A stretch of 64,000 bases of DNA from a virus. Shown here piece by piece: positions 46,791-52,193 of this stretch. The notes below the pieces were generated by a model. It searched no databases and was not told the origin of the DNA. It worked only from the letters and a program-made list of their open reading frames with translations. How positions within the stretch are numbered: position 1 is the first letter of the stretch; each line of letters opens with the position of its first letter. The DNA lies in IMG/VR virus record IMGVR_UViG_3300009320_000008, positions 16,339-80,338 of that record, one strand, 5' to 3'. The position numbers and the translations under genes are program-made.

Positions 46791-48206
46791 ATGAAGAAAA
46801 GCGAACTTATTAAAATGTTGGCCGAAATGGGTGTGGATGTAAATCAGTTTGCACGTGGAAGCGCAGACATCCCGGATCTGAAGTTGGAAGTCATTCAGGA
46901 TTTTATGACTACCTTCATGAAGCCCCCGGAGTTGGTGCTTTCGAAACTGTTTCCTGTTTCCGACTCTCCGTCCAGCACGATCAAGTGGGAATCTCAGCGT
47001 GGTGGTAGGGGAATGACTCCGTTTGTTGCCCCCGGCGCACCTGCCCCGGTAACTGCTCCGTTTGGGTTTGCGAAACACCGGGCGGAAGCGGCATACTGGA
47101 AGGAGAAGATGTATTTTGATGAGGAATTCCTCAACAATCTCCGCAAGCCCGGAACCGATTCCGTTTACGACGAGGCCCGCGAAAAGGTCGCAACCAACCT
47201 GGCGGCATTATCGGCTCGTTCCGACCGAAGGCTGGAGTGGATGTTCTCTCAGATGCTTTCCGGTGGTACCATCACCTATGAGGTACAGGGTGGTTACAAA
47301 ATGACCTTGGACTATCAGATTCCGTCTGATCATATCGTCTCCTTGACGAGTGATTATTATTGGGATACGGGTTCAAGCCGAAACATCCTCAAGGACATTC
47401 AGGACGCCAAGATCAAGGTCAAAAAGGCGTGTGGGGCAGTTCCCAATTACGCCATTTTCAATTCCCAGGTGCTGAAACATCTGGCAAACGACACCACGAT
47501 CCGGCAGCTTCTTCAGAAGAATTATTTTGGAGATGGTCGCCTGTTCAATGGTACTGGAGGTTCTGCTTCTGGTATCCATGAACTGATCGGTGTCAATCCG
47601 TCCATTATTGGAGGGCTTCTGGACATCGAAAACTTTGTGGTCTTCGATGAAATGTATGAGATCCGTGCTTGGTTGACAGCCGCCGTGACTGGTGGTTCCA
47701 CCACATGGGTTTTCGTTGACAAGGTGGAAGATTTCAAGACCGCCGAGTTGCTCCGATTTAACGATCAGAGTGCGGGGACTTATGAGGAACGGTACATCAT
47801 CAGCATCGATACCGAAGGTTCCAGAATTCAAGTCGCCTATCCCCCGGCCAGTTCGTATAAGGCAGGGGAGGACTTCGTCACCATGGTGACACCGTACATT
47901 GCGGACGATAAATTCATCATGTTTGCGTCCCATGTTGACGGTCAGCCCATTTCCAAGTACAAACGTGCACCGTTTGGCTTGGAGCGTCACTATGGCAAAT
48001 TCACCGACAAGAAACCTGCGTGGGATCCGGAAGGATTGTGGGTCCGTGTTCAGGATAAAGGCTTGCCCGTTCTTATGCAACGGGATGCGGTCTATATCCT
48101 TGATGTTACGGCGACCACTGGTCAGTCAGCTACCACAACGACGACCACAACGACGACCACAACCACAACCACAACAACCAGTTCGACCACAACCACCACC
48201 GCCTAA
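46791..48206 (+). CDS. major capsid protein (lambda gpE-like) with C-terminal T16-SS-T5-A tail
   Basis: LFP, MTPFVAPG, RRLEWM..Q.L..G, WDPEG...GLPVL. Confidence 0.9.
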   Translation: MKKSELIKMLAEMGVDVNQFARGSADIPDLKLEVIQDFMTTFMKPPELVLSKLFPVSDSPSSTIKWESQRGGRGMTPFVAPGAPAPVTAPFGFAKHRAEAAYWKEKMYFDEEFLNNLRKPGTDSVYDEAREKVATNLAALSARSDRRLEWMFSQMLSGGTITYEVQGGYKMTLDYQIPSDHIVSLTSDYYWDTGSSRNILKDIQDAKIKVKKACGAVPNYAIFNSQVLKHLANDTTIRQLLQKNYFGDGRLFNGTGGSASGIHELIGVNPSIIGGLLDIENFVVFDEMYEIRAWLTAAVTGGSTTWVFVDKVEDFKTAELLRFNDQSAGTYEERYIISIDTEGSRIQVAYPPASSYKAGEDFVTMVTPYIADDKFIMFASHVDGQPISKYKRAPFGLERHYGKFTDKKPAWDPEGLWVRVQDKGLPVLMQRDAVYILDVTATTGQSATTTTTTTTTTTTTTTTSSTTTTTA

Positions 48207-48224
48207 TAGCGGAGGAGGAGTGAC

Positions 48225-48653
48225 ATGATCACAAAAGTCCGTCTGGTAAAGACGTTAAAAGCGGGAAACGATGTCTGGATAGCAGGACTTGAGCTTCCTA
48301 ATAGAGCCATGCCTGTTATTCCAGACACGCTTTTGAAAGAGGTCAGACGAAGAACGGGGACGGTGGAGGTCCTTGAACAAAAGACACCCCCGCCGATTCC
48401 CGTTCCTAAAATCGTCATAAGCGACACAAAGACCTCAACAACATTGGTTTCAAAGACCTCAAACGATATTACTCCACTCACAGTTGAGGAGGAGGAGTTT
48501 GAGGAACAGGTCAAGGGAATTCCTCAAGAGGGGGAAGACAAAGCCCAGGTGAAGACCGATAAAACGAGTCCAAAAAAGCGATCTAAAAAGGCTCCTGAGC
48601 CTAAACGAGAGTTAAAACCGAGAACCAAACTAAAACTTCAGGTTAGATCATGA
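48225..48653 (+). CDS. virion-associated hypothetical protein
   Basis: GGAGGAGG RBS; follows MCP. Confidence 0.65.
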   Translation: MITKVRLVKTLKAGNDVWIAGLELPNRAMPVIPDTLLKEVRRRTGTVEVLEQKTPPPIPVPKIVISDTKTSTTLVSKTSNDITPLTVEEEEFEEQVKGIPQEGEDKAQVKTDKTSPKKRSKKAPEPKRELKPRTKLKLQVRS

Positions 48654-49102
48654 CCAGAAATGAGCTTATAGTAAAGTTACAGCAAGAGGTAAAGGGACTC
48701 ACTTCTTATCTGGAAGAAGAGGATTATGATAACGCTATTGACGATGCGTTGAGGGACACAGGTTGGTCCCTTCCTACTACTGTTAACTTTAATATAATTT
48801 GGATAAAAGATAGGGCAAAAAGACACCTGTTCTTTTATCTCCAATCCGAATCTGCTCATAAGTTTAAGTTCGAACAGATTAATCTCCAACATCGATTTGC
48901 CCATTATTCTAAGTTGATTGAAATAGCGGACAAGAATTTTGAGGAAGCCAAAAGGGATAATCCCGAACATTTTTCCGGAGTGGATGCTTTTAAGACTTTT
49001 GGACATCAAGTTGATGCTGGATTTGCTTATGATGGGAATGGTCGTGATATTACATATGACACCGATCAAAATGTTTTGTTTGGTCCTAATGAGACCGATT
49101 AA
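48650..49102 (+). CDS. putative head-tail adaptor
   Basis: Synteny; helical. Confidence 0.6.
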   Translation: MTRNELIVKLQQEVKGLTSYLEEEDYDNAIDDALRDTGWSLPTTVNFNIIWIKDRAKRHLFFYLQSESAHKFKFEQINLQHRFAHYSKLIEIADKNFEEAKRDNPEHFSGVDAFKTFGHQVDAGFAYDGNGRDITYDTDQNVLFGPNETD

Positions 49103-49785
49103 TGTCTATCGCATTAGATGTCAAGGACGCAATCATAGAGGCTGGCGTTGCTACAACCATACTTAGGGATTCTGGCAATGTTACCGGCAATTACATTAAG
49201 TATGACTTGAACGCTCAGGTCACAAAGCCTTTTATTCGGGAACACTTTATTGAATTGATGCTCCCGAGTGATTATCCTGCCGAAGTCGGTGAAATAATCC
49301 AAGTAGATGTTTCGGGAATCAAATACATGTTGATGTCCACGACTCCCAACATGTTTGAGAATTCCGTTAGCTACTACTCCGCAGTTATGTATAAGACCAA
49401 TGTGGTTGTTGATGTCAAGCGTCCTTCGGAAGATGATTGGCCTACGCAGACATACCATAAGGTTACGGAGTGGACTACTGTTGCGGCGGATGTCAATGCC
49501 CTTCTCTCGGACCCTCTTTTTGGGACTGATCTTGAAACAGACCAACAGATTGCTTTCTATGACGTTTTTGTTGGGGAGTTGTATATCGCTTCCTCAGTTG
49601 GAATTGAAGTCAATGATCGGATTCGTATCGTATCGGATGAGTACTACAAAGTAGAAACGGTTCTTCGGAATCGATTCAACGGCGTGGATGTGTGTAAGGT
49701 TGTGGAAGACAGCCGACCGGCTTGTACTACTACAACCACGACTACTACAACCAGTTCAAGTACCACAACAACTACTGCTCCATAG
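49102..49785 (+). CDS. putative head-closure protein with C-terminal T9-SSS-T5-AP tail
   Basis: Synteny; beta-rich GIEVNDRI...YYKVETV. Confidence 0.65.
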   Translation: MSIALDVKDAIIEAGVATTILRDSGNVTGNYIKYDLNAQVTKPFIREHFIELMLPSDYPAEVGEIIQVDVSGIKYMLMSTTPNMFENSVSYYSAVMYKTNVVVDVKRPSEDDWPTQTYHKVTEWTTVAADVNALLSDPLFGTDLETDQQIAFYDVFVGELYIASSVGIEVNDRIRIVSDEYYKVETVLRNRFNGVDVCKVVEDSRPACTTTTTTTTTSSSTTTTTAP

Positions 49786-51205: not shown

Positions 51206-51298
51206 GCGGGGTAAAACGCTTTCAGATTTTAGGGGCAACTCAGTATATGCAAATTTATTTGAATCGTTTTTAGGCACTAATAAGGTCGGAGAATCAAG

Positions 51299-51514
51299 AT
51301 GTTTCTACGTTGCACAAAATGTAAAAAGAAGTTGATCAAAAGGCTACCAAATGGACTCTTACGATTTGAGTTCGGTAACTCACCAAACGGGAAAAGACCG
51401 GTGTTTATGGAGATATACGGATCTGTGAAAATTCGTTGTCTTCGGAAGAGTTGTGGGGATATGAATATCTTTACCTTCTTTCCGCCCTCCCCTCTAAACG
51501 AGGAAAAAGGCTAA
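51299..51514 (+). CDS. Com-like zinc-ribbon protein
   Basis: RCTKCKKKL...IRCLRKSCGDMN. Confidence 0.7.
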   Translation: MFLRCTKCKKKLIKRLPNGLLRFEFGNSPNGKRPVFMEIYGSVKIRCLRKSCGDMNIFTFFPPSPLNEEKG

Positions 51515-51554
51515 CCGGTAACTAACATTTATTTTTTATCAAAGGAGGAACATT

Positions 51555-52193
51555 ATGCCCAGAACAGGTCCAGTAACAAAAGACACCACGACAATTGCAT
51601 TGGGGTTAGCTCAGATCCGAGTGATAGGGGCTTCTGCAACCTACATCGGGCAGGTTGCCCCAATCCTTGCTGCTGCTAACTCGGTGGGAGCACTGGCCTC
51701 CACCAGATTTGTGGGAAACACCGACTTCTTCAAACTGGAGTCCGGGTTTCCCCTTCTGGAGGATGCTGTGTTTCCTTTGAGGGAGGCAGCGTCCCTTGAA
51801 TTGGCATTTAAGGAGATCACACCCAAAAACATGGCCCTTGCCAGAGGTCTCGATCCGGACGACTACTCCGCAGCCCATACAGGTGCGTTGCCGTTGGGAA
51901 CCGTTTCCACCCCTGAAGTGATTCGGATGGAAGCTGTTTACACCTATCCGGATGGGACCAACACAATGACCATCATATTCCCGAGAGCGCAGGTTGTTGC
52001 GAATACAGAAGTGGATTTTGCTTCCGAGGAACCGGCGGCTGTTGCAATCACCATCGAATCAAAACGTGCCGACTCGGAAGTCACCGGCGGACATATTATC
52101 TGGGATGGTATGCCTTTGGGCCGAATCGTTTGGAATGACGGTACCAATACCACAACCACAACCAGTTCAACAACCACAACAACTGCTCCTTAA
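51555..52193 (+). CDS. major tail tube protein with C-terminal T5-SS-T5-AP tail
   Basis: Strong RBS; precedes chaperone and TMP; IIFPRAQV..DFASEEP. Confidence 0.8.
   Translation: MPRTGPVTKDTTTIALGLAQIRVIGASATYIGQVAPILAAANSVGALASTRFVGNTDFFKLESGFPLLEDAVFPLREAASLELAFKEITPKNMALARGLDPDDYSAAHTGALPLGTVSTPEVIRMEAVYTYPDGTNTMTIIFPRAQVVANTEVDFASEEPAAVAITIESKRADSEVTGGHIIWDGMPLGRIVWNDGTNTTTTTSSTTTTTAP

Follow-up and report, generated by a model that had tools for sequence, protein, structure and literature searches.

Three structural proteins of a marine, uncultured phage end in runs of threonine and serine that probably serve as acceptor tags for a mucin-like O-glycosylation encoded by the phage itself. 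These proteins, namely the major capsid protein, a neck protein of the head-closure type and the presumed tail tube protein, are encoded within bases 16339-80338 of the viral contig IMGVR_UViG_3300009320_000008 (80,338 bp, 42% G+C, ~93% complete by estimate). This stretch of 64,000 nucleotides is called the window below. Outside of the window, near the tail-fibre end of the contig, a gene was found for a 318-amino-acid (aa) glycosyltransferase with the motifs and the modeled fold of the polypeptide N-acetylgalactosaminyltransferases (ppGalNAc-Ts; family GT27), and in near-complete genomes of related phages this gene and the tails were present together or absent together.

An earlier note on this DNA, made from the letters alone, had placed the three tails on these proteins and had described the carriers as unrelated. 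The ends of the open reading frames (ORFs) match that description, and the carriers, a PF03864 capsid, a stopper resembling SPP1 gp16 and a tube-like protein, have mutually unrelated folds. When the window and the whole 80,338-bp genome were scanned in six frames, no run of six or more Thr/Ser residues was detected beyond the three tails. Their occurrence is therefore far beyond chance, and the search for more tagged proteins ended with these three.

That no glycosyltransferase is visible in the window, as the earlier note had also stated, was borne out by a Pfam search restricted to window ORFs of at least 100 aa, but the statement does not hold for the genome. A genome scan for modifying enzymes revealed the 318-aa glycosyltransferase gene, 13.6-14.5 kb before the window start, and a probable second GT-A gene, of 252 aa, emerged from the comparison of gene content described below. 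The 318-aa protein matched the Pfam family Glycos_transf_2 (PF00535) with 42.8 bits (40.4 bits in the genome search; cut-off 23.3). A single-sequence search of the solved structures gave no match and a profile was needed, which aligned best to ppGalNAc-T10 (E 4e-7, 216 positions, including the DxH and GGGEN motifs). Five further ppGalNAc-Ts were aligned over 220-250 positions, other GT2 enzymes over the N-terminal 125 only. D106-x-H108, Y210-GGG-E214 and H238 were invariant in an alignment of 14 sequences and N215 was nearly so. The sequence DaHC, which contains the putative metal-binding DxH, was aligned with DSHC of GalNAc-T10, and YGGGEN with iWGGEq, a Tyr standing in place of the Trp.

The AlphaFold2 (AF2) model of the enzyme (predicted local distance difference test score, pLDDT, 89; predicted template modeling score, pTM, 0.90) was subjected to structural comparisons. 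In Foldseek, about the 48 best ranks were all taken by ppGalNAc-Ts (E ~1e-17). With VIA-align, 29 ppGalNAc-T entries reached Z scores of 24.8-28.3 with 280-292 of the 318 residues aligned at a root mean square deviation (rmsd) of ~3.0, and the next GT-A families (WrtF, heparosan synthase, GlfT2, SpsA) scored at most 20.1 over 188-271 residues. The catalytic domain fills residues 1-318, strand 1 starting from residue 7; no lectin domain, no membrane anchor and, in Pfam, no further domain was detected. Judged from this model, the enzyme appears to be a soluble catalytic core with the fold and the motifs of the polypeptide GalNAc-transferases. Its family comprises at least 793 protein clusters at E<=1e-10, and the 120 best listed are on contigs of up to ~100 kb. 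In tblastn searches of 50,697 phage genomes only two weak matches were obtained for the enzyme, neither of them in a mycobacteriophage, one weak match (26% identity) for the capsid protein and none for the tail tube.

To relate tags to glycosyltransferases, gene content was compared across whole fetched records, among which six enzyme-positive genomes and six tail-less relatives were near-complete. Two to four C-terminal poly-Thr tails were found in all six near-complete enzyme-positive genomes (G000, G002, G036, G041, G031 and G042) and in none of the six enzyme-negative relatives, which is in line with the co-occurrence that the earlier note had proposed to look for. A hidden Markov model (HMM) of the enzyme scored 450-540 bits in 12 records; in the six near-complete tail-less relatives (G018, G020, G023, G027, G028 and G029) it returned nothing in five and 17 bits in the sixth. 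Of the genes of the window phage, only the 318-aa enzyme and the 252-aa ORF tracked the tails, being common to other tail-bearing genomes and absent from tail-less relatives. A PF03864 capsid is lacking in two of the enzyme-positive genomes, G031 (73.6 kb, with terminal repeats) and G042 (95 kb). Both were tailed on the major tail protein (phrog_807), and further tails were present on a head protein of G031 (phrog_673) and on the head-tail adaptor of G042 (phrog_477). The reverse test was performed with IMG/VR records picked solely for a T10 run, of which 38 were chosen and 25 were searchable. Strong orthologues of the enzyme (E<1e-110) were present in two of these 25 only, G046 (5e-113) and G069 (2e-122), and these are the two sampled records with genuine C-terminal tails on tube-like proteins. 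At 75 of 80 loci the T10 run belonged to an internal Thr tract, so that such runs are a poor proxy for tags.

Table 1. Tagged virion proteins, their C-terminal tags and the two candidate modifying enzymes (window numbering unless marked as genome)
Feature	Position	Strand	Basis
Gene of the 471-aa major capsid protein, HK97 fold family of the lambda gpE type	46791..48206	+	PF03864 1.4e-29, phrog_29 9.7e-46
Capsid C-terminal tag T16-SS-T5-A, 23 Ser/Thr, then TAA	48132..48203	+	Thr/Ser run 48132-48200
Gene of the 227-aa neck protein, stopper/head-closure type with two beta-barrel domains	49102..49785	+	AF2 model, Foldseek, gene order
Neck-protein C-terminal tag T9-SSS-T5-AP, 17 Ser/Thr, then TAG	49726..49782	+	Thr/Ser run 49726-49776
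Gene of the presumed tail tube (major tail) protein, 212 aa	51555..52193	+	Synteny, PHROG matches of homologues
Tube C-terminal tag T-N-T5-SS-T5-AP, then TAA	52143..52190	+	Thr/Ser run 52149-52184
318-aa GT-A glycosyltransferase, predicted soluble	genome 1792-2748	-	PF00535; GT27-like fold and motifs
252-aa protein, probable second GT-A transferase	genome 3406-4164	-	HLEDDW motif, co-occurrence

Conservation of the tails was surveyed in the best 120 of 614 capsid homologues (E<=1e-3). A Ser/Thr tail was present at the C-terminus of 107 of them (12-60 residues, median 17; 60% Thr and 29% Ser), and the other 13 stopped exactly at the conserved core. When all three proteins were compared at 70 IMG/VR loci, the tail state was all-or-none: where the capsid protein was tailed, neck and tube protein were tailed as well, as far as they were readable. 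At tail-less loci the capsid protein ended in ..LDV plus one residue, the neck protein in ..EDTR and the tube protein in ..IVW plus one residue. In a capsid tree calculated without the tail columns the tailed phages formed a single clade with a Shimodaira-Hasegawa-like approximate likelihood ratio test (SH-aLRT) support of 99, and hence the tails appear to have arisen, or to have been lost, once within the capsid family. Within this clade all readable proteins carried tails (capsid 21/21, neck 16/16, tube 13/13); the capsid count includes L005, which was mis-scored as tail-less by the scoring rule and is in fact tailed. Tails were retained on all three proteins down to ~54% capsid identity.

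The order of Ser and Thr within the tails was not random. The grammar T..S(2-6)..T(4-9)..end was fitted by 76 of the 107 capsid tails compared with a mean of 7.6 (maximum 19) in 500 shuffles of Ser and Thr, a contrast that is inflated by shared ancestry. It was further fitted by 9 of 14 distinct neck tails and by 1 of 10 tube tails, the tube tails of other lineages being mostly without the Ser block. The last Thr run of the 107 tailed capsid homologues was five residues long in 47 and six in 25 cases, and the tail ended in A in 63 and in AP in 9. The ending SS(S)-T5-A(P), which the earlier note had regarded as an address shared by the three proteins, is thus present on all of them in this phage, but it is not conserved as such: a last run of five Thr occurs in fewer than half of the capsid tails. 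Given this variable last run and the tube tails that depart from the grammar, SS-T5-A(P) on all three proteins is a trait of the sub-lineage of the window phage and L001 rather than an address of general validity.

The first Thr run varied even between phages that are 94-97% identical (T16 versus T15 in the capsid, T9 versus T14 in the neck protein), and a tandem duplication of 12 nt is present in the capsid tail. Length variation therefore probably results from local duplication or slippage, filtered by selection that retains the tail. Mixed Thr codons had previously been taken as a sign of selection on the protein and against slippage. The codons are indeed mixed (ACC 18, ACA 16, ACT 7, ACG 5; near genome usage) and the tail is retained, but its length was probably generated by local duplication or by the slippage that had been dismissed. 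Recent copying of the tag DNA, or gene conversion, between the three genes is not claimed, as under resampling of codons according to genome usage the shared strings were no longer than expected (P 0.86, 0.02 and 0.11).

Other short C-terminal endings are shared within the same capsid family. At L050, L053, L054, L056, L057, L052, L059, L063 and L069 the capsid protein ends in ..DMAEY or ..YEEDEY together with ..IYDD or ..HLEDEY on the neck protein and ..DMV on the tube protein, and some necks end in ..VYTP. L064, which has a tail-less capsid protein, carries long Ser/Pro-rich tails (SPSSSPS...) on the neck protein and on two other ORFs, a distinct low-complexity style of tag (Ser/Pro-rich ORFs at 3867-4130 and 6801-8207). 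It seems that lineage-specific tags are generally placed at the C-termini of these virion proteins.

The identity of the carriers was examined separately. The capsid protein matched PF03864 with 103.7 bits (cut-off 22.9). For the neck protein no family match was obtained in Pfam/PHROG-type sequence searches, and an AF2 model was built from a 35-sequence alignment (pLDDT 77), which shows two beta-barrels and a disordered tail (pLDDT <50 at residues 209-219). Local Foldseek matches with a probability of 1.0 were obtained to the SPP1 gp16 complex, the T1 stopper, the Chi neck, the Douge connector and PBSX XkdH (7z4w, 8zdj, 8vhx, 9l0e, 3f3b), with template modeling (TM) scores by target of 0.58-0.62 over ~114 residues. 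The match spans only half of the 227-aa protein, the second domain lying beyond it. The best global matches, MrkH/PilZ and picornavirus 3C proteases, were discarded as generic double beta-barrels (TM ~0.2, rmsd 13-19). The gene is flanked by an adaptor-like and a tail-completion-like gene, and judging from the model, head-closure protein seems a fair name for its product. The tube protein of the window had no Pfam, PHROG or PDB match of its own. Its homologues matched PHROGs of major tail proteins, namely phrog_476 in 5 of 14 (best E 6e-6) and phrog_885, 807 and 117 in others. Synteny supports its assignment as tail tube protein, since the gene is directly followed by ORFs for a chaperone-like protein (52230-52712) and for a tape measure of 1610 aa (52978-57810). 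Sequence searches of the solved structures with the capsid protein, the tube protein and the tube profile returned nothing useful.

In the 252-aa protein and its homologues an N-terminal strand-loop and an HLEDDW motif are conserved. The protein had no Pfam match and no match to PDB sequences, a profile search included. Its structural neighbors in the Atlas include clusters named GT2 (TM 0.62-0.78), which is to be taken as a lead only. The protein is probably a second GT-A transferase, and its gene was found together with the enzyme gene in five of the six near-complete enzyme-positive genomes. In the sixth, G042, the tags (L166:2525-2989, L166:18858-19499 and L167:824-1810) consist of T5-6 blocks split by VAP or ATP and have no Ser block. 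This may hint at a link between the 252-aa partner and the Ser block, although the case stands alone and G031 is at odds with it.

A larger set of sugar genes was present in G002 immediately following the tail fibres, comprising the enzyme, three methyltransferases, a hexapeptide acyltransferase, an extra GT2-like gene and two GT1/GT4-like genes. Compared with this cluster the window phage carries a minimal, two-gene version of the module, and the glycan therefore probably differs between phages. One methyltransferase-domain protein of the G002 cluster (42369-43283; L097:2372-3283, minus strand) itself bears the Thr tract T3-S-T2-S-T5-S-T5-APP ~20 residues before its C-terminus, so that an enzyme of the pathway is tagged. 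An M15 peptidase is also encoded inside this cluster. Most enzyme-positive genomes moreover encode giant Ser/Thr-repeat proteins with repeats of hundreds of residues and up to 1156 Ser/Thr in 1796 aa (G002 68215-71568 and 49811-52318, G036 84752-89317, G041 25146-30533 and G031 66084-70016), which are probably further mucin-like substrates; none was found in the genome of the window phage. A different sugar module was observed inside the connector operon of tail-less relatives. In G018 (66162-74867; L103:6162-14864; a tail-less relative of L042) an insert of ~9 kb lies exactly between the stopper and the tail-completion genes and encodes a 692-aa GT1+GT9 fusion, a GT2, two radical SAM proteins (one with SPASM) and three methyltransferases, two of them resembling rhamnosyl-O-methyltransferases. 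A similar insert is present in the tail-less relative G020 (12858-18036).

Based on these results we propose that the three tails are disordered, mucin-like acceptors for O-glycosylation by the phage's own enzymes. Late in infection, with a host uridine diphosphate (UDP)-sugar as donor, the 318-aa enzyme would attach a sugar to Thr and Ser residues of the tags, and the 252-aa protein would extend or complement this first transfer. As there is neither a membrane anchor nor a secretory pathway, the reaction would take place in the cytoplasm of the bacterium. The tags would be displayed on hundreds of capsid subunits, on a stopper ring of 6-12 copies and on hundreds of tube subunits, which would result in a dense glycan brush across head, neck and tail of the virion. 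We infer catalysis on the tags and the outward exposure of the C-termini; the transferred sugar might be GalNAc or a similar one, and the benefit may lie in shielding, stability or adhesion. The suggestion of the earlier note that head, neck and tail share a portable C-terminal tag of an O-glycosylation-like kind is supported by the GT27-like enzyme, by its co-occurrence with the tails and by the tails being the sole Ser/Thr runs of the genome.

Several observations weigh against this proposal. The identity of the enzyme to GT27 members is only 13-17%, and in a protein without lectin domain and anchor both donor and acceptor specificity may differ from those of GT27. Within the capsid family the link between tail and enzyme appears to go back to a single evolutionary event, so independent support comes from few other lineages. 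The fragmentary enzyme-positive contigs G032 (22% complete) and G035 (59%) show no tails, and G042 lacks the 252-aa partner. Other glycosyltransferase clusters occur in tail-less relatives, and thus sugar genes alone do not predict tails.

Alternatively, the tails might remain unmodified and act as a hydrophilic, disordered brush or spacer for hydration, against aggregation or for adhesion to polysaccharide or mucus-like matrices, with the GT27-like enzyme acting elsewhere, e.g. on precursors of the host envelope or on other phage proteins. The predicted disorder of the tails would suit such a role, the different short tags of other lineages (..EDEY, ..VYTP, Ser/Pro-rich) indicate that these C-termini tolerate varied appendages, and tail-less relatives have sugar enzymes as well. 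We nevertheless regard a bare brush as improbable: enzyme and tails are found together in lineages whose capsids are unrelated, relatives without the one also lack the other, the genome has no other Ser/Thr-rich sequences, and the nearest structural relatives of the enzyme glycosylate Thr/Ser-rich peptides. Work on the envelope would also be unexpected for an enzyme without a membrane segment. Marginally less probable again is that the tails receive another modification, or one from host enzymes (phosphorylation, O-acylation or host glycosylation), and that the GT27-like enzyme is not the initiator. The conserved HLEDDW partner could then be the real initiator, and the methyltransferases and the acyltransferase that related genomes add would fit with further chemistry. 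However, the only genes of this genome that track the tails are the two GT-A-like ones, with no kinase or acyltransferase among them, and dependence on host enzymes would leave the joint loss or gain of phage gene and tails unexplained.

Finally, tail length differs between near-identical phages and the capsid tail contains the tandem duplication, as expected if the tails were functionless by-products of repeat expansion in the DNA or of assembly errors. This is hardly credible in view of the tails of over 100 homologues, recovered from independent samples, that use all four Thr codons and are always in frame, terminal and on the same three proteins; this conservation, together with the non-random order of Ser and Thr, effectively refutes it. 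Phage-encoded O-glycosylation of the tails is therefore by far the explanation that we favor.

Apart from the tagged proteins and their candidate enzymes, the Pfam searches revealed other genome features. Window positions 5158-15469 encode two QueC proteins, a PTPS/QueD protein, a radical SAM protein, a glutamine amidotransferase and a short-chain dehydrogenase, judged by their domains a probable 7-deazaguanine DNA-modification cluster with extra enzymes. Intein splicing/PT-HINT domains in proteins of the replication region, a pentapeptide-repeat protein and a DUF1643 protein were detected in genome positions 1-28452 and window positions 12503-39591. A peptidase M15 (endolysin-like) and a DUF1353 protein are encoded 3' of the tail genes at the very end of the contig (window 63120-63476 and 63535-63990). 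The stretch was partly present in marine metagenome runs from three studies, with no RNA run among those listed. A host assignment was rejected, as the binned capsid relatives are short contigs with the mutually inconsistent labels Thermotogota, Sulfurovum and Bacteriovoracaceae.

To our knowledge, glycosylation of phage virions has been demonstrated only for actinobacteriophages and was considered rare elsewhere. In the literature searched, no description of GT27-like phage enzymes or of poly-Thr tags was found, and a paper on HFTV1 refers to Che8 solely in connection with capsid structure. Virion glycosylation appears to be achieved by another route in a widespread group of uncultured phages, with long poly-Thr tags on three proteins and a GT27-like enzyme. 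If this is true, sugar-coated virions would extend to many environmental phages, with a bearing on particle stability, adsorption, aggregation and recognition. A minimal, soluble and cytoplasmic pair of enzyme and tag would moreover be available for direct work in E. coli.

The phage enzyme has its nearest solved relatives among the enzymes that initiate mucin O-glycosylation in animals and apicomplexans. It resembles eukaryotic GT27 members (GalNAc-T2, 2FFU; GalNAc-T10, 2D7I; Toxoplasma GalNAc-T3) over the whole GT-A domain (Z 28, ~287 of 318 residues, rmsd 3.0), the DxH and (W/Y)GGEN-type motifs are aligned, and the presumed acceptors are likewise Thr-rich, disordered peptides flanked by Pro or Ala. 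It differs from them in sequence (13-17% identity) and in having neither a ricin-type lectin domain nor a type II membrane anchor nor a secretory pathway. Whether phages of this kind hold true prokaryotic-virus counterparts of the eukaryotic mucin-type initiators, which decorate poly-Thr tags with sugars of the GalNAc type, or similar ones, in the cytoplasm, so that a tag and one or two small soluble enzymes form a portable kit that could be used for glycoengineering in bacteria, is a speculative idea that we put forward tentatively and consider rather doubtful. The likeness in any case raises the question of the origin of the mucin-type transferases (GT27).

The closest functional parallel is the virion O-glycosylation of the mycobacteriophages Che8, Corndog, Myrna and others, reportedly described by Freeman and colleagues in 2023. 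In these phages, phage-encoded glycosyltransferases are said to act on a C-terminal feature shared by capsid and tail-tube subunits. The present system resembles that of Che8 in combining shared C-terminal, here putative, acceptors on capsid and tube with phage-encoded predicted transferases, and in the position of the glycosyltransferase genes away from the capsid gene and near the genome end. The Methyltransf_24-type methyltransferases that the relative G002 adds are comparable to Che8 gp108. The tags are different, since the Che8 capsid protein ends in ..TGS and its tube protein in ..DGS without a Thr run, compared with the 12-60 Thr/Ser residues found here. The stopper is tagged here, unlike the Che8 stopper, which ends in ..LRKV. 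The enzymes differ as well: Che8 gp108-110 comprise a fusion of GT2 and methyltransferase, a GT2-like protein and a GT25-like one, and in the two pairs compared with hhalign, gp109 with the 318-aa family and gp110 with the 252-aa family, no specific similarity was found (probability ~1%). Taken together, this comparison suggests that the window phage and its relatives follow the same logic as the Che8 system with different parts, both in the tag and in the enzymes.

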